From: a virus
Lineage: Duplodnaviria; Caudoviricetes
Direction: 5' to 3' (one strand)
Length of the DNA stretch: 64,000 bases
IMG/VR virus record: IMGVR_UViG_3300027805_000006
Each line of letters starts with the position of its first letter. Position 1 is the first letter of the stretch. A program made the translations under genes and the position numbers. This document shows positions 40,173-48,941 of this stretch, piece by piece. The notes under the pieces were generated by a model. The model was not told where the DNA came from and searched no databases. It worked only from the letters and a program-made list of their open reading frames with translations.

Positions 40173-40849
40173 TCAAGTCTATTTATCGCGGTCTGCCAGA
40201 ATAAAGCCGCTCTTTCTTTCAATTCTTGCTTTAATTCTTGATTAAACTCAACTAAAAACTCCATTGGGAAGCCTGTTTCTGCTACCATTAAAATTACACC
40301 GCTGTTTATTTGTGTATCAAACATCTCATTGTGTGCTTCGGCATAGAAGCAAATTTGGAGTTTATAATCGTGAATGTCTGTATTATTTTTAACTCTATTT
40401 GATGTCTTAAAGTCAATAATTGCGGGTCTTCCCTTATACACACCAACAAGGTCACATCGCCCACCGATTTCATATGTTGAGCAGTAAAGGGGAACTTCTT
40501 GACCCCAGACTTCATCAATTTTAGAAAGTTTTAACTTAAGAGAATTGAATGACTGCATATCAGCATATGGCACTGACTTACCGTCAATAGGCTGATTTAC
40601 GTCTTCACCTTTAAGATAGCGCTCTATTAGCAAATGAACATTAGTACCGCGCGTCGTAGCAGCATGACTTACAGCCGCTGCCTTAGCAGCGCCAAGACTT
40701 TCCTGCCACTTCTTCAGTGAAGCCTTCTTTTCTTCAGCCTCAGTCTTTCCTAAAACAGTGGTAATGGAAGGATAATAACCAAAGGGAGTGTCATACCACC
40801 TTTGGTTATTATGAGGAACAGTTGAAAGTTCGGTGTAGTTAAATTTCAC
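40169..40849 (-). CDS. PD-(D/E)XK exonuclease (Cas4/RecB-like phage exonuclease)
   Basis: YPSITTVL..RGT.VH..E..GRCDLVG..IIDFKTS..YKLQ..FY. Confidence 0.85.
   Translation of the reverse strand: MKFNYTELSTVPHNNQRWYDTPFGYYPSITTVLGKTEAEEKKASLKKWQESLGAAKAAAVSHAATTRGTNVHLLIERYLKGEDVNQPIDGKSVPYADMQSFNSLKLKLSKIDEVWGQEVPLYCSTYEIGGRCDLVGVYKGRPAIIDFKTSNRVKNNTDIHDYKLQICFYAEAHNEMFDTQINSGVILMVAETGFPMEFLVEFNQELKQELKERAALFWQTAINRLE
40180..40186 (-). promoter_or_regulatory. Late promoter ATAAATA
   Basis: tatttat on the plus strand, upstream of 40172. Confidence 0.6.
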
Positions 40850-41517
40850 TTTAGTCGTCTATTCATACGAACGAGACGTCTAGAAGTAGGTTTCCTGCGA
40901 GTGCGTTTAGATTTCAAAATTCTGATAATCTTCTTTTTTCTGGATGCTAATTTGAGTTTCATTCTAGTTCGCGCTTTAGCGCGAGGTTTAAATGCAGCAC
41001 GTGCACTTGACACAACTCTACCTTTTCTAAACCCCGATGTTACTCTAAAACCGCGCTTTATCTTCTTTCCTTGACGTCTAAAAGCACGCTTGATTCCTTC
41101 TTCTAACTCCTCTTCATTGGAAGATTTGATTATATCATCATCTTCATCCTCAGCATCTTCTTCAGAAGGTTGCTCTTCTTCATATGTTTCAATGCCAAGT
41201 TCTTTTAGAGTTTTTTCATCAAGCACTATACCCTGTGGATAAATTTTGTCATTATCTCTAGACAGAACTATACTGTCATCTAAAACTTCTACATACACCG
41301 ACTTGCCAGAATGGTCCTCAATCTCACCACTCTCACCGTCTTCAGCAAGGTCAAACAGATCATTCAGTTGATTAATATCTAACTTTATGATAAATCCTTC
41401 TGCTGATAAGATGACGCCGTGATTTGCTAAGTGCCCAACGTTCCATCCTCCTTTAGGGAGGATAGGCTCATCAGATACCGTCTCCTTAGACGTAAGTTCC
41501 TGTAGAAGTTTCAACAT
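40846..41517 (-). CDS. Probable prohead core-like protein (acidic middle, very basic C-terminus)
   Basis: LEE/G site followed by an Arg/Lys-rich tail, reminiscent of T4-like prohead core proteins. Confidence 0.5.
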   Translation of the reverse strand: MLKLLQELTSKETVSDEPILPKGGWNVGHLANHGVILSAEGFIIKLDINQLNDLFDLAEDGESGEIEDHSGKSVYVEVLDDSIVLSRDNDKIYPQGIVLDEKTLKELGIETYEEEQPSEEDAEDEDDDIIKSSNEEELEEGIKRAFRRQGKKIKRGFRVTSGFRKGRVVSSARAAFKPRAKARTRMKLKLASRKKKIIRILKSKRTRRKPTSRRLVRMNRRLK

Positions 41518-41521
41518 TGGA

Positions 41522-42373
41522 TTACAGGGCTCTACCTTGCTTGCTTAGTTTAGCAACCAACGTATTCATTAAACGAAGCATTGATGATTGGCTTCCAATA
41601 GCCTTATCACCCATTTCAATCTGTTTCATCTTCATCTTAACTGTTGATGGAAGCTTTGCAACATCTACACCGAGAGCAGCAAGTAGCTGCTGAGCAGCCA
41701 TTTCAAACTCAGATAGTTTTTGTCCTTGAGCAGGAGCTTCATTCATTTCTTCTTCTTTAACGGTAACTTCAGAGCCAACATTTGCAAGATCTACTCCAAG
41801 TTGGTCAGCCAGCATCATAAACTTAGAGCGAACTACGCCACGTTGAACTAGTGATGCAGTGTCCATTAGTGATGCAGCATCGCGTCTCATTGCACGTGTG
41901 AGGAGACCAGATGGGAAGTTTAGGGCTGCTAAAACTTCCTCAATCTGCCTGACTATTTTTGAACCAATTAGGTCAATTTCCTTATCGCTTGCCATTGGCT
42001 TCTTAGTAATCTTATCAACAACTGGTGCTTCTTCTGCTTCTTTAACCTCTTGACGAGCAAAGCCCTTTGCAGTTGCAAGCGCAGCAAATAAACGTTGCGC
42101 AGCAATGCGTAGAGGTCTGTTGGTTCTCATTTCATCTGCAACTTCAAGAGCAGCGCTTTTTACTGCCTTTGGGCGGCTTTCAAGCGTCTCAAGCGAAATG
42201 CCTAGCAGGTGATATAGTTGGACGATTTGACGTGCCATAGGCATGGTCAAATTTGCAACTGCTGGGCTTGTTGATGGAATGCTTGTGATGTCAAAGTTAT
42301 CCTTAAAGCCATCAACGTCTTTTTCTTTTGCCTCGTTTAGAACGCGGCTTAGGAATTTTTTACCGATAGACAT
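41522..42373 (-). CDS. Hypothetical protein, probably head-internal, 283 aa
   Basis: Three helical segments separated by LNE/A, VKE/A and VKE/E sites. Confidence 0.55.
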   Translation of the reverse strand: MSIGKKFLSRVLNEAKEKDVDGFKDNFDITSIPSTSPAVANLTMPMARQIVQLYHLLGISLETLESRPKAVKSAALEVADEMRTNRPLRIAAQRLFAALATAKGFARQEVKEAEEAPVVDKITKKPMASDKEIDLIGSKIVRQIEEVLAALNFPSGLLTRAMRRDAASLMDTASLVQRGVVRSKFMMLADQLGVDLANVGSEVTVKEEEMNEAPAQGQKLSEFEMAAQQLLAALGVDVAKLPSTVKMKMKQIEMGDKAIGSQSSMLRLMNTLVAKLSKQGRAL

Positions 42374-44859
42374 AAAATCTCCTTTAGTGTATGAAAGTTA
42401 TTCTCAGCCGCTTTGTTAGCGAGAATTTGTGTTTCTTCAACAGGGGACTTTCCCGTAAGTCCTCTGCCTAATTTCTTTAGAGCAGACTTTTTCTTTTCTG
42501 CTGGTTTTTCTTCTTCAGACTCTTCTTCAGACTCTTCTTCAGACTCTTCTTCAGACTCTTCTGATTTTTCTTCCTCAGGTTCAGCCTCTTCAGATGGCTC
42601 TTCTTCAGATGGCTCTTCTTCAGATGGCTCTTCTTCAGATGGCTCTTCTTCAGATGGCTCTTCAGGAGGAGGTGGTAGGTCATCCTCAGTCTCTTCGTCT
42701 TCCTCAGAATTATCTACTGAAGCAACTACCTCTACATCATCCTCTGATCCTAAGTCAGCAGCATCATCAATAGAGATTTCATCTTCACCCTTTTCCTGAC
42801 CCTCTGCCCTTGGCCAAATTACATCTAGAATATCAAACTTAGGTGCAAGAGCATTAATCGCATCTTCAATATCATCTTCCATGCCAAGCATCTTCTTCAT
42901 TTCTGTTTCAAATGCTTCAGCCTGTGTGGCATTTACATAAACCTTTACAATTTGCCCATCACTTGTCTCTAACCCATAGAGTACAGCATCGACTTCATCA
43001 TTTAAATCTGAAGCACGCTCTAGGTAATTTGCAACATCTGCTGACTTTACTTTTCCATCGGAGTTGATTGTGTTTCGCATTAAATTAAAGCCAATATCAT
43101 TCTGTGTCTTATTGTTAATATCACCCTCGCCAGCACTAGAACCATCAACTGTTTTTAATTTTGACTGATCAACTTCTTTTAGCAATGGCACATTTAGAGG
43201 TGCAACACTATCAGCTAACTTATACTTCGCAGGATTAAGTTGAACAGCAATATCAGCAATGTGTTTTGGTTTTACACCTTGTGCCATTAGTGCAGTATTC
43301 ACTCTTGTCCATGTCGTATGTTTCTCTTCACCGGGCTTAAGATGCATCATAAATGTAACTGCAGGCTTAACCCCTAGAACAAACTCAACAGCCTTAGAAA
43401 CTTTCTGCACTGGAATCTTTTTAGAATCGATGTCATTGTGTTTAGACTCTTCAATAGGACCAAATTGGCGCTCAACGAATTCTTCTGCTTCTTGTGCAGT
43501 GTAGAATGGACCTTCTATTTCAACACCGTGAGAGTAGTCCTTACGAATCCAAGTCATAACCTGCTCGGGCTCGAGATATCCCATATACGAAGTGCCCCAT
43601 CTATAATCTGGCTTACCTTTGTATGGTCGCTCTCTCCACTTTGTGCTATCTCTTGTTGATACTTCTCCAATCCAGGATGCATTCTCATCTTCATCATAGA
43701 AAGCAACATAGAAGGTATCTATCTCATCTTCATCTTCTTCATCTTCTTCATGCTCAAGGTCTGCTAAACTCAAATCTGAACTATGAAATGAATGTTTGCC
43801 ACCACTGTATAGATTTACTACAACAAACTTTTTGTCTTGACCAAATGAAGCAATTTCACCGGTTTTACCATGTTGCTGTACATTTCCTGTAACTTCAACA
43901 ACATCGCCTATTTCAAAATCTTGCATATCGCCATTCATCTGTGAGGGGCCGCCTTCCGCCACATCTTGCCCCTGAGCAATCATCATCATTTTCTCTTTGT
44001 TGCTGGTGATAACTTCTTTACCGTCTTGTCCTTTAACACGATATATAGGTTGTTCGTTTGGTCCCCAACCATGTATTTGTGCTTGTCCCGGTTTCAAATC
44101 TATAGGCATTTTGGTATAGTTATGAACAACAACATCTCCTACCAAGCCTTCCGCCACATCTTGTTTATAATGATTCTTGAATAGACTATTACATTTTAGG
44201 CAACGATCTTGTTCTGGAGTTTGTGCGAATGTTCTTAAGCCTACACCAGTATCTCTACCTGGATGATCAGCAAGTCCATGTTTTGGTGTTTTTAGATGAA
44301 CTTTGTCTCCAGAGCCTTCCGCCACATCTTGCTGCTTCACTAATCTAAATGCTTCTGCTGGAAGATTATCTGCCTGACCGCCATCCTCTAGATCGATGTA
44401 GAATTTTTTTGGCGCACCCTTGAATAGACCCATCTTTATTTCACGTATCCACCCCGTTTTACCAGCATGCGGCCCTTTGACAATCATAACCAGCTTCTTT
44501 AATGTTTTTGCTTCCGTGACGCCTAATGGTGTCATCCAAACCCTATAGACATCCTCGCGACCAGGCCTACGTACCACTGATTTTTCAATTGACTTTTTCA
44601 CATAAGCTGGATCATTGTATCTTGCTTCCATTGTATCTATTTCATCTTTGCTATACTCGGCTTTTTCAGCAGATTTTCTAAATTCGTCTGAATACTTAAA
44701 GGATTTTCCAGAAGCTTTACTTCCAATTTCACCTTCATGATTTAGTAACTTGAAGCCTTTATTGAATAATTCAGGACTAAATGTATTTTCGGCACGATCA
44801 CCACCATTTGCTGCTTCTGCAACATTATCTACACCAACAATAGTTTTCAGTAAATTCAT
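42349..44859 (-). CDS. Modular probable head-internal polyprotein, 836 aa
   Basis: KOW/SH3-like modules separated by VAE/G, VTE/A, IEE/S and LKE/V; acidic repeat tail. Confidence 0.7.
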   Translation of the reverse strand: MNLLKTIVGVDNVAEAANGGDRAENTFSPELFNKGFKLLNHEGEIGSKASGKSFKYSDEFRKSAEKAEYSKDEIDTMEARYNDPAYVKKSIEKSVVRRPGREDVYRVWMTPLGVTEAKTLKKLVMIVKGPHAGKTGWIREIKMGLFKGAPKKFYIDLEDGGQADNLPAEAFRLVKQQDVAEGSGDKVHLKTPKHGLADHPGRDTGVGLRTFAQTPEQDRCLKCNSLFKNHYKQDVAEGLVGDVVVHNYTKMPIDLKPGQAQIHGWGPNEQPIYRVKGQDGKEVITSNKEKMMMIAQGQDVAEGGPSQMNGDMQDFEIGDVVEVTGNVQQHGKTGEIASFGQDKKFVVVNLYSGGKHSFHSSDLSLADLEHEEDEEDEDEIDTFYVAFYDEDENASWIGEVSTRDSTKWRERPYKGKPDYRWGTSYMGYLEPEQVMTWIRKDYSHGVEIEGPFYTAQEAEEFVERQFGPIEESKHNDIDSKKIPVQKVSKAVEFVLGVKPAVTFMMHLKPGEEKHTTWTRVNTALMAQGVKPKHIADIAVQLNPAKYKLADSVAPLNVPLLKEVDQSKLKTVDGSSAGEGDINNKTQNDIGFNLMRNTINSDGKVKSADVANYLERASDLNDEVDAVLYGLETSDGQIVKVYVNATQAEAFETEMKKMLGMEDDIEDAINALAPKFDILDVIWPRAEGQEKGEDEISIDDAADLGSEDDVEVVASVDNSEEDEETEDDLPPPPEEPSEEEPSEEEPSEEEPSEEEPSEEAEPEEEKSEESEEESEEESEEESEEEKPAEKKKSALKKLGRGLTGKSPVEETQILANKAAENNFHTLKEILCLSVKNS
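42511..42660. repeat. Coding tandem repeats: 4 x 12 bp (EESE) and 5 x 15 bp (EEPSE)
   Basis: ttcttcagactc x4 at 42511-42558; ttcttcagatggctc x4 exact plus one near copy at 42586-42660. Confidence 0.95.
43951..44331. repeat. Three identical 18-bp direct repeats (coding strand CAAGATGTGGCGGAAGGC = QDVAEG)
   Basis: gccttccgccacatcttg at 43951-43968, 44146-44163 and 44314-44331; unique spacers of 177 and 150 bp, both in frame. Confidence 0.95.
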
Positions 44860-47174
44860 TTTTTGGCATCCTTGTTTGGATTTTGGAATTTAGGCGCTTG
44901 CCATGTTTTTCTTGCAACACGGCGAATAAGTTTTCCAGTCCCAATACGTGTTTCAATTGGAGCAATAGCAGAGGCAGTTGTTGCAGTTGTTGTCGCACTA
45001 CCAGATGTTGCCACTGCCCCCTCACCTTCTTCAGACAAAGCAATTACACTCTTAAGAAGTTTCATTTCTTGCACCATTTGATAGTTTTCACCACTCGCAT
45101 TAAAAAGAAGTTTATTCATTACTGCTCTTATTCTTGTCAGCAACGGGGTAGTTGGAATAAACTGATTGACGTAGTAATAAAGTTTATTCAAAAACTTTAT
45201 TTTTTCATCAAACGTAAGTTCCTCATACTTAAAAGTGCCATCAAGCAGTATATTTATTCTATCTACATTCATCGCTGGGAAATGCTGTAGAACCTTCAGT
45301 GTCTTTAGGTGGTCATTCCAATCAATTTTGGTATCCTTACCATAACTCAGGTCGATGTGCAGCCAGCGCCACCAATTTGCTGGTACTTTCCTTACATGCC
45401 TGAATAACTCTGCCGAAACCTTCTTCCCAATCAATTTCTTTACTGCTGGAGAACTAACTCTCCAGATTACATAGCCCCAGAAGTTCAGGGCAGACATCTC
45501 CTTTGACCATGAAGAAAGACGACTATGTGTCTTATCTTTCAGCATGCGTATTCCAATTTTATCATCTGCCTTATAGATTACAGATGACATCATTACAGTT
45601 GCAAAGTAGATATTAAGAAGCGTCCAACCGTCCTTATTCTGGTATTGTGCTTTATCTGTGAATAGGCGTGTTTCCTGCAGCATCGCCTCAGCAAGTTGCT
45701 CATCAGTATCTTGATGAACGGCTTTAGCCTGCTTTCCATAAAGAACTGCAGCAAGTTGTCCCTTTGACTTTGCTTTCTTTACTTTTTCTGCAAGTTCTAG
45801 TAGATCTCTACGGCTCTCAGCAAAAACAACAAGAGTTCTTCGGATTATTTCTGGGGAAAGCCCTATCTGTTTTCCTGACTTCAACTTCAACTTAAAGTTG
45901 TCCTTGCTGGTCTTAAAGTCCTTCAGACTTGCTGCTAGTTTGCTGAGCGTCTCTTCAATAAGCGCATTTATCTTCTTCTGAAGTGCTCTAAAATCATCAC
46001 CCCCGCCCAGTTCCTTTGCAAGATTTTTTACTGTTTCTTCTGGTGTGGCTCCCTTGACAGATGATAGAACTCTCTTTGCGCCCTGCGTACGAGCAAGGTC
46101 CTTGTTTCCAAGGAGATCGCCTATCATAATCTTCAATTGTCCAATTAGCCCTCCACGACTTTCGGGTGATGCATCACTGTCAGTGGTCTTTACCATTCCT
46201 GAAATACTGGCTCTTACAGCGTGGTTAAACTGATTAATTGTCGTAAAGGCGTCCTTATCTACAAGTTTGATTTGGTCACCAGTAGTTGGCTCTCTCAGCA
46301 CAACACCTTCAATACCAATATCTTCATCTGGAGATACATCACTTGCAGCAAGAGGTGACTTAATTTGATTTACAAACTTTGTGAGTAGTTCTTTCTTTAT
46401 AGGCAACTTGAATTCTGTCATCAACTTTGCCTGTAACTTTGCACGCAATTCTTTTACTTGTGGTCGAATATCCTTATCAAATGAAGTAACAGCACGAGAG
46501 ATAATATCAAAGTTTGTTGCACCTTCGATATCAGAAGCATCATTTAAAAAATTATCTAACTGCTTCAGTTCTTTTGAAAGATTAACTTCTTTCAACTTGC
46601 TGCTGTCAATCTTCTGTACGCCAACAAATTGAAATGATAAATCTGCTGGCTGTACTACCAAATTTTCACCATCTGCAGTATCGACAACCTTTACATGCAC
46701 ATTCACAACCTGATTTGCCAGTGCAGCAGAAAGTTTATCTACCACCACATCAGAGGTCTTACCAATACCGCGGATAAAAGCAATGTAGTTTTTTCCACCA
46801 GCGCCATAAGTAACGGCATTAGGTTGGCGCCCAAACAAAATTTCTATCTCTACAGCATCACCTGGTTCTAAGATGCTCTTAATGTCGGCTTCTTTTTCAG
46901 CCAATGCAGCATGCGCTGACCTAAACCCATTGTTGGCAGAAAGGTAGGGGTATGAAGCCTCTGAATACACGTTCTCAGCACTTTTTGTTTTGCCAGCGCG
47001 TGAGGTATACAGGCGTCCCTTGCCATCAAGTCCAAACTGCAAATTTGCTCCATCAAGTTTTTCGGACGCAATGAAATTTGCAATATTCTTGACCGCAGCG
47101 ATAAAAGCCTGGATGTCCAGATCTTCTAAATGTGTAATTGCCTCAGAAATAACCATATAACTAGCAGATTTCAT
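44856..47174 (-). CDS. KxDG nucleotidyltransferase (RNA/DNA ligase-fold, DUF6267-like) fused to unknown domains, 772 aa
   Basis: ITHLEDL; motif I SEKLDGAN; YTSR; EIEILFG; motif IV IEGVVLR; motif V IKLVDK. Confidence 0.7.
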   Translation of the reverse strand: MKSASYMVISEAITHLEDLDIQAFIAAVKNIANFIASEKLDGANLQFGLDGKGRLYTSRAGKTKSAENVYSEASYPYLSANNGFRSAHAALAEKEADIKSILEPGDAVEIEILFGRQPNAVTYGAGGKNYIAFIRGIGKTSDVVVDKLSAALANQVVNVHVKVVDTADGENLVVQPADLSFQFVGVQKIDSSKLKEVNLSKELKQLDNFLNDASDIEGATNFDIISRAVTSFDKDIRPQVKELRAKLQAKLMTEFKLPIKKELLTKFVNQIKSPLAASDVSPDEDIGIEGVVLREPTTGDQIKLVDKDAFTTINQFNHAVRASISGMVKTTDSDASPESRGGLIGQLKIMIGDLLGNKDLARTQGAKRVLSSVKGATPEETVKNLAKELGGGDDFRALQKKINALIEETLSKLAASLKDFKTSKDNFKLKLKSGKQIGLSPEIIRRTLVVFAESRRDLLELAEKVKKAKSKGQLAAVLYGKQAKAVHQDTDEQLAEAMLQETRLFTDKAQYQNKDGWTLLNIYFATVMMSSVIYKADDKIGIRMLKDKTHSRLSSWSKEMSALNFWGYVIWRVSSPAVKKLIGKKVSAELFRHVRKVPANWWRWLHIDLSYGKDTKIDWNDHLKTLKVLQHFPAMNVDRINILLDGTFKYEELTFDEKIKFLNKLYYYVNQFIPTTPLLTRIRAVMNKLLFNASGENYQMVQEMKLLKSVIALSEEGEGAVATSGSATTTATTASAIAPIETRIGTGKLIRRVARKTWQAPKFQNPNKDAKK

Positions 47175-47178
47175 TTAA

Positions 47179-47185
47179 TATTTAT
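47179..47185 (-). promoter_or_regulatory. Late promoter ATAAATA, 4 nt upstream of the 772-aa gene ATG
   Basis: Minus strand gtcATAAATAttaaATG. Confidence 0.6.
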
Positions 47186-47189
47186 GACA

Positions 47190-47211
47190 AAGGGGGCAAA
47201 TTTGCCCCCTT
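47190..47211 (-). terminator. GC-rich hairpin/terminator
   Basis: Perfect palindrome aagggggcaaatttgccccctt downstream of the 91-aa gene; U-tract is short. Confidence 0.65.
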
Positions 47212-47232
47212 ATTGTCTTTGTTTTAGCAGAA

Positions 47233-47508
47233 TTAGATGCCCTGCTTCACAACCTCATTTGCTGCCTCAGTCTCTGCTGAAGGAGCGGAAGCTGCTGCAG
47301 CCTTCTTTTCCTCTAGTTCTTTACGAACAGCAGCAGCAATCTGCGCCCCCAAACCTTGCATTGCAGATTGGGTCTTAACTACTGCTAGTTGTTCCTTTTG
47401 CAGATCAGCAGCAAATGCATTATAAACATCTACTGCCTGGCGTACTGCATCACTGAACTGAGCGACATCATAACTAATGCCATCAAGGGTAATAGTCTTT
47501 GGATCCAT
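47233..47508 (-). CDS. Small DUF6447-like protein, 91 aa
   Basis: TITLDGISYDV..S..VRQ..Y pattern; AGGAGA RBS; own late promoter and terminator. Confidence 0.7.
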   Translation of the reverse strand: MDPKTITLDGISYDVAQFSDAVRQAVDVYNAFAADLQKEQLAVVKTQSAMQGLGAQIAAAVRKELEEKKAAAASAPSAETEAANEVVKQGI

Positions 47509-47563
47509 TGTTAAATTCTCCTATCATGTATGGAATTTGAAGATTGATAGACAATCATATGTC

Positions 47564-47570
47564 TATTTAT
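47564..47570 (-). promoter_or_regulatory. Late promoter ATAAATA
   Basis: Abuts the helicase stop, upstream of 47508. Confidence 0.6.
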
Positions 47571-48941
47571 TCATTCTGGAACTGATAATTTTTCCATCAG
47601 GTCAGAAATTGATTTTGGCTTTGAAACGGTAGGAATAGGCATAAGCATTGTTTTCTTCTTGAACTCAAGTTCCTTCTCTTGAAGGTCAGAAATTCTTAGG
47701 CTTACCTTACTCCAATTCATCATAATCTTTTTACCGTTTGCATCTGAGTTTCTGGACTTCACAAACTCAAAGCGATATTCTCCGGCCTCGTGCATTGCTT
47801 CTGTCTTTACTGTAGCGATCATTAGGTCAGATGTATTAGTCTTTGATGAACCACCCTGCACATCTCCTTGGTGCATCTGACGCCCTTCATTGATTGCATC
47901 TGTTGCATGCTTTCCAAGTTGAGAAGCACTGATCATAATGCAGTCATAGTCAAAACCAATTGCACGAACTTCTTCTGAAACATACTTATCTTTCAGGAAC
48001 ATACTTTCACCAGCGCCACGCCTAACAGGCTCCATGAGGTCAAGGTAATCTACGATGATCCAATCTGGCTTAAAGGCGTGTCTGGCTTCTAGTTCGCGAA
48101 GGTACGCTAGAATGTGATTAGCATTGGTAGTACCTTCGCGCATTCGCTTAATGAAGAAGCGCGCGCCAGTCTTTTCATGAAACTTCTCAATCTCTGCTGC
48201 TACTACAGTTCTATTTGTTTGAATGAGATTGCTTGCAAAGCGTGCAATCATTTGGTCAGTACGACGAGCAACCTTTTTATCCCTCATTTCAAGTGAGATA
48301 TATACGCCATGAAGCCCTTGCGCCATCAGATTGAAGCCTAGATTAAGCATCGACACTGACTTACCACCACCAGAGGGAGCAAGAAAGGTAACAAGTTCCT
48401 GCCGCCCAATTCCACCGCCAATTAGTTCATCTACGGACTTCCACCCGGTAGAAATTACCGCATCCTCGGTTTCATCATCTTCAAGCCGTGTCATCGGGCT
48501 ATCAAAGTAGTCAATACCTAGGTCTGTAACAACGTCAATCTCAGTTGCTTCTTTGAGTTTAGCAACCATAGTTCCGATGTCACCATTTTCCAAGTAGCCA
48601 CCATTTCCAATGGACTTCTGCACTTCCTTGATGACTGCCTTGAAGCGACAGAACTTTGCGATTTCCTTTAGAAGATAGTCAATGTCACCACGCCCAAGTT
48701 GAACGCTGTCGCCATCAAACTTTGTGGCTGCCTTCACGACAGCAATCGCAGGCACAGAGCGGTGCTCTTGGAAATAGTCCTGCATGAATTCAACCGTCTT
48801 CGCGTAACCTGGGTCAAAGAACTCAGGCTTTAGAATGCCATTCAGCCGTGCAAAAAGGTCAGGCATAGAAAGCATTGAATTTACATATAGCCGCTGTGCA
48901 TCTTCATCCATCAGCGGTGGGTTTTCAATTTTCTTTGTCAT
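47571..48941 (-). CDS. gp41: Replicative DnaB-family helicase (T4 gp41)
   Basis: ISTGW..D..IGGG..FLAPSGGGKS (Walker A); YISLEM; IIVDYLDL; ISASQL; VKSR. Confidence 0.93.
   Translation of the reverse strand: MTKKIENPPLMDEDAQRLYVNSMLSMPDLFARLNGILKPEFFDPGYAKTVEFMQDYFQEHRSVPAIAVVKAATKFDGDSVQLGRGDIDYLLKEIAKFCRFKAVIKEVQKSIGNGGYLENGDIGTMVAKLKEATEIDVVTDLGIDYFDSPMTRLEDDETEDAVISTGWKSVDELIGGGIGRQELVTFLAPSGGGKSVSMLNLGFNLMAQGLHGVYISLEMRDKKVARRTDQMIARFASNLIQTNRTVVAAEIEKFHEKTGARFFIKRMREGTTNANHILAYLRELEARHAFKPDWIIVDYLDLMEPVRRGAGESMFLKDKYVSEEVRAIGFDYDCIMISASQLGKHATDAINEGRQMHQGDVQGGSSKTNTSDLMIATVKTEAMHEAGEYRFEFVKSRNSDANGKKIMMNWSKVSLRISDLQEKELEFKKKTMLMPIPTVSKPKSISDLMEKLSVPE

Follow-up and report, generated by a model that had tools for sequence, protein, structure and literature searches.

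What keeps three copies of an 18-bp repeat identical, down to their synonymous sites, inside one phage gene? The question is raised by IMGVR_UViG_3300027805_000006, an IMG/VR virus record (Duplodnaviria; Caudoviricetes) of which a stretch of 64,000 nucleotides (nt), here called the window, was analyzed. The repeats lie in P0001, an open reading frame (ORF) that encodes a polyprotein built of small modules. We find that the repeat encodes a linker, that the linker is conserved as DNA among many phages, and that unrelated modules are reshuffled exactly at its edges. The explanation we favor, at a probability of roughly 0.6, is a head-packaged polyprotein of swappable cassettes, with linkers that would be cut after VAE and would also serve exchange.

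Within the window, CAAGATGTGGCGGAAGGC occurs exactly three times, always on the minus strand, against 0.04 matches expected by chance; no fourth copy was found there even when three mismatches were allowed. The copies are in frame in 42349-44859 (minus strand) and read QDVAEG at residues 177, 233, and 298, and two of the three are identical over 19 nt. Their codons are uncommon in this setting: in the window's linker-bearing ORFs, GTG supplies 10% of Val, GCG 7% of Ala, and GGC 21% of Gly. Calculated from these frequencies, the probability that three QDVAEG peptides share any one codon set is ~2e-4. Count and codon frequencies bear out a first, sequence-only reading of the window, which had described three exact, synonymously identical QDVAEG 18-mers in unusual codons; the search of the 64-kb window for further 18-mers yielded none beyond these three. 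The parts of the polyprotein are as follows, with a slash inside a site marking the presumed cut.

42349..44859, minus strand: polyprotein ORF P0001, 836 amino acids (aa), 93 kDa, isoelectric point (pI) 4.6
44815..44859, minus strand: N-terminal leader MNLLKTIVGVDNVAE/A, ending in a VAE site with codons GTT GCA GAA
44509..44526, minus strand: degenerate linker LGVTE/A before module A, codons GGC GTC ACG GAA GCA
44332..44511, minus strand: module A, aa 117-176, KOW-like and basic; 7.2 kDa and pI 9.6 including its linker
44314..44331, minus strand: linker copy 1, QDVAEG, exact 18-mer
44164..44313, minus strand: module B, aa 183-232, 50 aa, with a conserved His and C-x2-C
44146..44163, minus strand: linker copy 2, QDVAEG, exact 18-mer
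43969..44145, minus strand: module C, aa 239-297, 59 aa, predicted small beta-sheet plus helix fold
43951..43968, minus strand: linker copy 3, QDVAEG, exact 18-mer
43756..43950, minus strand: module D, aa 304-368, predicted KOW/SH3-type beta barrel
43717-43755, minus strand: acidic spacer between modules D and E
43459..43716, minus strand: module E, aa 382-467, modeled as three beta strands, helix, strand, helix
43444..43458, minus strand: PIEE/S, a T4-type (I/L)xE site kept at the end of module E in homologues
42811..43038, minus strand: conserved 75-aa domain, aa 608-683, 45% identical to the syntenic ORF437 of Ralstonia phage RsoM2USA
42352..42810, minus strand: acidic repeat region (PSEEE / SEEE units), then a basic C-terminal tail

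After the leader, a segment of 101 aa closes with LGVTE/A, and ~360 residues remain after PIEE/S, comprising the 75-aa domain, the acidic repeats, and the basic tail. The sequence-only reading had placed unrelated 50-aa (C-x2-C) and 59-aa segments between the repeats, where they are present as claimed, and had suggested that further (V/I/L)xE sites subdivide the protein. For sites of the form [VIL]xE[GAS] this holds: all six fall at segment boundaries (residues 13, 114, 179, 235, 300, and 469), and cutting at them would give pieces of 11.5, 7.2, 6.2, 7.2, 20.1, and 39.5 kDa. A Pfam scan of P0001 returned no family above its cut-off.

Homologues place this arrangement in a large family. From 5.8 billion proteins we retrieved 74, all metagenomic and many encoded on contigs of 100-356 kb. 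Collinearity with P0001 is seen in none of them: what each has in common with it is one to three modules (50-98% identity), placed elsewhere or in another order, and the alignments begin and stop at the linker. The homologue boundary reads (K/E)Q-G-V-A-E-G, of which the QDVAEG of the window is a one-base variant. Across the 75 proteins, the strict motif [GDS][VM][ATS]E[GA] occurs 238 times, with up to nine per protein, where 2.8 are expected. Cut at the motif, the proteins yield 225 internal segments (median, 76 aa), which form at least 40 families without mutual BLAST similarity. Modules A, B, and C are families of near-fixed length whose members start and end at the linker; module A recurs in >30 other proteins (50-86% identity), module C is 74-98% identical across many otherwise different proteins, and modules D and E travel together in ~16 homologues. 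A HMMER search with residues 100-480 against 1.84 billion cluster representatives gave 657 matches at E ≤ 0.001 and 363 at E ≤ 1e-10, and in the 123 new representatives among the matches listed we counted 152 linkers where 3.5 are expected. Some representatives are short, with just a leader and one or two of the same modules, which suggests that modules can act as separate units. In four of the 123 representatives (P0136, P0138, P0169, and P0172), the gene caller had begun the protein at the linker GTG (VAEG...).

Other cassettes in the family carry DUF6321, DnaJ, GNAT, or cytidylyltransferase domains, and most match no known family. Modules A-E were found in none of 50,697 cultured phage genomes, and a full-text literature search found no published description of the GVAEG linker. 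A possible related protein in cultured phages may be encoded by a basic multi-module gene between g16 and g17 of the T4-like cyanophages S-SM2 (SSM2_109; L195 3204-5330) and ACG-2014g (L194 3017-4471). In common with the freshwater polyproteins, this gene has DUF6321 and a Cys-rich KDACY..VWPSAYASG module. The two cyanophage genes examined contain no canonical GTG-GCG linker, only degenerate xE[GAS] or (I/V)QTEG sites in ordinary codons.

The linker is conserved as DNA well outside the window. A 356-kb contig, reached by a codon-blind protein look-up, carries CAAGGTGTGGCGGAAGGC in two different genes, one base from the window version, on a background in which GTG makes up 17% of Val and GCG 6% of Ala. 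We then compared 112 linkers from 34 loci fetched by degenerate module-A peptide patterns; a scan for module-C loci confirmed only one locus. Val is GTG in 74% of these linkers (background 14%), Ala is GCG in 71% (7%), the first Gly is GGT in 88% (43%), the second Gly is GGC in 68% (31%), and Gln is CAA in 95% (70%). The base preceding the CAA is biased to G. Inside module A at the same loci, synonymous sites vary freely and common codons are used. The exact 18-mer (G or A at position 5) is present in >120 IMG/VR stretches, a lower bound, and its 11-mer core occurs at 1-5 copies per record in five jumbo-phage records, always on the coding strand, with zero hits for the reversed control. Synonymous identity, first seen among the three copies in the window, is thus kept across many phages. 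The rare codons are not demanded by the peptide, because the N-terminal VAE of P0001 itself is written GTT GCA GAA. Chance or local duplication as the origin of the repeat was ruled out, as the same linker in the same codons is found in hundreds of other phage contigs. An RNA element at the linkers was likewise rejected, with no Rfam match and RNA around the linkers that folds worse than shuffled sequence.

Linkers within one gene differ from each other by 3.53 positions on average, versus 3.82 between phages (p = 0.03). This within-gene likeness is only slight. The linker consensus is group-wide rather than lineage-specific, and strong concerted evolution within one gene was set aside on the same marginal signal. 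Recurrent exchange through a shared gene pool is our preferred cause of the consensus.

Shared DNA breaks off where such exchange would place its junctions. All fetched loci were compared with each other by megablast (≥88% identity, ≥120 bp), and match ends at locus ends were left out. Of all match ends, 33% lie within 12 nt of a linker, versus 1% of random positions. Inside polyprotein ORFs the proportion rises to 121 of 210 ends (58%), versus 4.4% of random positions in the same ORFs, and the ends pile up at both linker edges. The proposal that the repeat is a recombination site thus gains support from two sides: the linker is exactly where modules change in number, identity, and order, in a region that is far from invariant, and breakpoints of shared DNA gather there.

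The exchanged units are unrelated to one another. In profile comparisons by hhalign, module C shows no homology to A (E 0.72) or to D/E (E 0.083), and the weak match of A to D (E 0.016) covers only a 28-column KOW motif. Module B shares no BLAST similarity with the other modules and forms its own family in all-against-all BLAST clustering, apart from A and C. The modules are therefore not diverged tandem repeats, a candidate ruled out for A, C, and D/E by the profile comparisons and for B by the clustering. Each part was folded from a separate alignment, as MAFFT, given the whole region together with module fragments, piled unrelated modules onto the VAEG anchor. The AlphaFold2 model of module D, from 28 homologues, is a confident five-stranded barrel whose best structure matches are NusG and Spt5 KOW domains (NusG KOW Z 8.9, root-mean-square deviation 1.5 Å, 53 residues). 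Modules E (a mixed alpha/beta domain) and C (a small beta-sheet plus helix) also gave confident models; C had no match above Z 2.5 among solved structures, and ESM Atlas gave nothing useful. The model of module B is of low confidence, and its conserved His and C-x2-C suggest that it could bind zinc. The linkers come out of the models as flexible stretches of low confidence that connect confidently modeled domains. The KOW-like modules that the sequence-only reading saw on both sides of the repeats stand in part: module D is modeled as a KOW/SH3 barrel, and module A has only a sub-threshold Pfam KOW match (E 0.0077; 16.5 bits against a cut-off of 22.3). With KOW below its cut-off and no NGN domain found in P0001, the resemblance to NusG/Spt5 proteins is at the level of the predicted fold and confined to module D.

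Cleavage at the linker is suggested by its likeness to a known protease site. T4 gp21 cuts after Glu in L/I-x-E, and the T4 internal proteins are 8-20 kDa (PMC9026906). A capsid-targeting leader is all that they have in common; gp21 trims them and they are ejected, and IPI* is an inhibitor of a restriction enzyme (PMC9026906, PMC3012670). V-A-E/G fits the gp21 rule with Val at P3. Peptidase_S77, the gp21 family, was found in eight of ten large linker- or module-bearing records, namely RsoM2USA and seven of nine large contigs; no such gene was found among the ORFs scanned in the 64-kb window. Beside the protease, these phages encode gp23-type capsid proteins with N-terminal LAE/N and LLE/G sites. 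When P0001 and its homologues were searched with Pfam and PHROGs, no protease family was detected, and none of 26 scanned members of the polyprotein family has a peptidase domain. Depletion of (V/I/L)xE[GAS] inside cassettes was considered as a sign of protease avoidance and proved uninformative: such sites are instead enriched 1.6-fold, probably through extra degenerate linkers.

The leaders point in the same direction. P0001 starts with a short putative propeptide that has a hydrophobic-x-Glu end followed by a small residue, as in T4-type head-internal proteins. Recurrent leaders in the family (MNLFDIFES, MKIDQLFES, MRFNEITES, and MFVDDLFD) often have a hydrophobic-x-E-G/A/S end, and 37% of polyproteins match the pattern M.[LIFVM].[DEQNS][LIFM][LIFVTM], versus 6.5% of other ORFs (p = 2e-12). 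The family leaders resemble the T4 capsid-targeting sequence (CTS), MKTYQEFIAE. By analogy with the CTS, the leader of P0001 is a candidate capsid-targeting propeptide (PMC3012670, PMC9026906). At loci L108, L133, L085, L024, and others, many neighboring single-domain ORFs begin with the MKIxDIhxE(G/A) leader of the polyproteins. Two leader examples, MRINEILVEQGVAEG and MKTLRDYINLIESNEQGVAEA, pass straight into a GVAEG linker.

The gene neighborhood adds a link to the virion. The ATG of the polyprotein overlaps the stop of the upstream gene (ATGA), an instance of translational coupling. The two features upstream of P0001 are these.

44856..47174, minus strand: 772-aa nucleotidyltransferase/ligase-like gene with an intact KxDG motif and a weak RNA-ligase Pfam match
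47178..47216, minus strand: intrinsic terminator, its hairpin GGGGGCAAATTTGCCCCC trailed by T's; next comes CATAAATA, 11 nt upstream of the ATG

The 772-aa protein is the orthologue of ORF438 (35% identity over 510 aa) of RsoM2USA, which is the closest cultured relative (baseplate wedge protein 46% identical). ORF438 was detected in virions with liquid chromatography-tandem mass spectrometry as one of the ten most abundant bands, and it has a predicted mass of 62.4 kDa and a listed virion protein of 51.69 kDa (PMC8504454). Processing at LTE/G and MAE/S would leave ~54 kDa. Because ORF437, the next gene in RsoM2USA, matches P0001 only over residues 608-683, the 570-aa array of cassettes is an extra within a gene that is itself syntenic.

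The terminator at 47178..47216 marks the start of the transcription unit, and a late-promoter reading of CATAAATA is weak. The same NATAAATA motif occurs at 2507, 12614, 26076, 29492, and 32666 on the plus strand and at 47185, 47570, and 56457 on the minus strand. Several structural genes, and the polyprotein operon as well, have it 11-40 nt upstream, and it is a possible late promoter. In the same operon, a 223-aa ORF (40846-41517, minus strand) is acidic in its N-terminal half and has a C-terminal tail extremely rich in Arg and Lys; it matches no family, and its composition would suit a DNA-condensing head-internal protein. Contigs of a 2017 freshwater metatranscriptome are 100% identical to several parts of 40500-47600, with DNA carry-over possible. 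Matches to this RNA library point to fresh water as the habitat of the phage. An apparent joint from 41160 to 43724 in these contigs was rejected as spurious, since both stretches that it connects are acidic and of low complexity, and one side has only 25 nt.

Taken together, these observations suggest the following explanation. P0001 would be a polyprotein made late by a jumbo myovirus of fresh water, a distant relative of Ralstonia phage RsoM2USA. It would consist of a short N-terminal leader, a string of independently folding 6-20 kDa cassettes, and an acidic and basic tail. As protein, the linker would present a flexible, exposed V-A-E/G site for a T4 gp21-type prohead protease. A single leader would bring the whole chain into the prohead core, maturation would cut it into small proteins that remain with the DNA, and the products would probably be ejected into the host, like T4 IPI*, IPII, IPIII, and Alt. 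As DNA, its ~19 nt (G-CAA-GGT/GAT-GTG-GCG-GAA-GGC), near-identical in many phages, would provide shared microhomology for in-frame cassette exchange within and between phages. The sequence-only reading had proposed much the same; its cassette and recombination half now stands on the family data, and for its protease, packaging, and injection half the evidence is circumstantial. From that evidence we infer late expression, head targeting, cleavage after Glu, ejection, and an effector role of the modules.

Several observations weigh against this explanation. At P3 the linker has Val, and the T4 sites have Leu or Ile. Two of the ten large records have no Peptidase_S77 match, and the window's own leader fits the family pattern only loosely. 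The polyprotein gene sits among replication genes (DnaB, primase, DNA polymerase, and a PD-(D/E)XK nuclease) rather than in a head module, and the NATAAATA 7-mer is not enriched overall. As most cassettes match no known family, an effector role for them is a guess. On the DNA side, 15-19 nt of identity is short for classical homologous recombination, and linkers of one gene resemble each other only marginally more than linkers of different phages do.

A bolder version of the DNA half may be entertained tentatively. The ~19-nt linker could be a dedicated in-frame junction, possibly recognized by a nuclease or annealing protein, kept identical to that end, through which large freshwater and marine T4-like phages would pool their small injected proteins and exchange them by recombination, the same linker serving also as the protease site.

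Among explanations that dispense with cleavage, the one that survives best, though we consider it unlikely, is an uncleaved chain of beads on a string, for example a replication or transcription adaptor with KOW/SH3-like modules, in which GVAEG is a hinge and its DNA conservation a trace of shuffling. The position of the gene among replication genes would suit such an adaptor, as would the KOW/SH3-like character of modules A and D and the finding that the modules are nearly always inside ORFs of 300-1500 aa, not free genes. Simple hinges, however, are not normally conserved in sequence over dozens of module families and hundreds of proteins. Nor would a hinge be expected to match the rule of a protease family that these phages encode, or to recur as the site type at which N-terminal leaders end. 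Leader-plus-single-module proteins exist, and the translationally coupled neighbor has a virion-protein orthologue (PMC8504454), both of which speak against the uncleaved chain.

The linker might also be mainly a DNA element, one that signals recombination or gene conversion, or one left behind by a selfish mechanism that mobilizes cassettes in frame, with the peptide incidental. The synonymous conservation across phages, the recurrence of one 18-mer in more than 120 viral contigs (again a lower bound), the gathering of breakpoints at linkers, and the ordinary codons of the N-terminal VAE site are what such an element would leave. We nevertheless hold it improbable: the peptide x-[VM]-[ATS]-E-[GA] is kept where the DNA departs (GMAEG, GVTEG, GVSEA, and DVAEG), degenerate (I/L/V)xE[GAS] sites in unrelated codons, such as PIEE/S, also mark module ends, and no recombinase or nuclease was found associated with the linker. 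Least probable of all is that the codons are kept for translation, as ribosome pauses for folding or in-frame GTG/ATG internal starts. In its favor are the rarity of GTG, GCG, and GGC in these genomes, the use of GTG (74% of linkers) or else often ATG at the Val position, RNA near linkers that is less structured than shuffled sequence, and the four of 123 representatives that gene callers started at VAEG. The rare codons of the linker are not the rarest available, however, and a translational role is made less likely because its common codons CAA, GGT, and GAA are more fixed than its rare ones, so that identity of sequence rather than rarity of codons is what is kept. The one Shine-Dalgarno-like AAGG, at 1 nt from the GTG, is too near to allow initiation, and the clustering of breakpoints is left unexplained.

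How does the head-packaged cassette polyprotein compare with known systems? The T4 internal proteins IPI, IPII, IPIII, and Alt, with the variable IP locus known from T-even phages, are likewise small (8-20 kDa) and diverse, with a short conserved hydrophobic-x-Glu leader, and the linker-bearing phages, as does T4, have gp21- and gp23-type genes. Whereas each T4 internal protein has its own gene and leader, here many cassettes share one leader and one frame with internal sites. The internal linker is also conserved as DNA here and marks exchange points; packaging and cleavage are what we infer for P0001. No sequence homology to T4 internal proteins was found.

Multi-core precursors of ribosomally synthesized and post-translationally modified peptides, such as the cyanobactin precursor PatE, offer a parallel in which variable, exchangeable cassettes are flanked by nucleotide-conserved protease-recognition sequences, so that a swap of cassettes leaves processing intact. 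Those cassettes are peptides of 6-8 residues in a bacterial pathway, whereas the present ones are folded domains of 50-110 aa in a phage protein.

Polyvalent proteins similarly combine 2-15 unrelated conflict-type domains in one polypeptide, with proposed co-delivery with DNA and processing (PMC5512222), and P0001 has the corresponding trait of at least five distinct modules in one phage polypeptide. Their domains, by contrast, are large enzymes, usually accompanied by an MPTase or another peptidase of their own, whereas the modules here are mostly 50-110 aa, match no known family, and come without a peptidase domain. Neither the hallmark polyvalent domains (ART-PolyVal, MuF, methylase, helicase, and others) nor a processing peptidase was found in P0001, which also lacks the internal protease domain of self-processing viral polyproteins. 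The word "linker" is absent from the paper that describes polyvalent proteins, and no junction motif is defined there (PMC5512222). A sister polyprotein of another phage, 902 aa long and encoded on the 356-kb JGI contig (L001 14299-17007), has an N-terminal GNAT domain, two canonical GVAEG linkers, and ART-PolyVal; it is in this sister, not in P0001, that ART-PolyVal and GNAT occur. GNAT and ART types are enzymes of injected polyvalent proteins and of T4 Alt (PMC5512222, PMC7824862). The sister polyprotein ties the linker system to polyvalent proteins.

In the giant phages phiKZ, 201phi2-1, and SPN3US, too, many head-internal proteins are expected to be cut after Glu in a three-residue motif by a gp21-related protease. 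The motif of that group is S/A-x-E, and its propeptides carry redundant sites (PMC9026906). These phages belong to another lineage with another P3 residue, and they have large paralogue families rather than strings of swappable mini-cassettes, with no DNA-level conservation of junctions reported. P0001 would be of a known kind, that of head-packaged processed proteins and polyvalent proteins; what is new is a single in-frame, DNA-conserved junction that coincides with the points of exchange.

If the head-packaged polyprotein is the right explanation, the linker and the cut at VAE/G would give a sequence rule for finding small virion-delivered proteins in metagenomes. The 657 representatives and their dozens of module families to which no function has been assigned would then be prime candidates for anti-defense or host-takeover functions. 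A linker plus a leader might offer a general route by which a single gene supplies a T4-type capsid with several small proteins. The system would also be a countable case of an old idea, module exchange at short conserved linkers, here in frame and tied to proteolytic release. Should the linker prove a dedicated junction, phages would have their own equivalent of exon shuffling or of an integron, operating within a reading frame.

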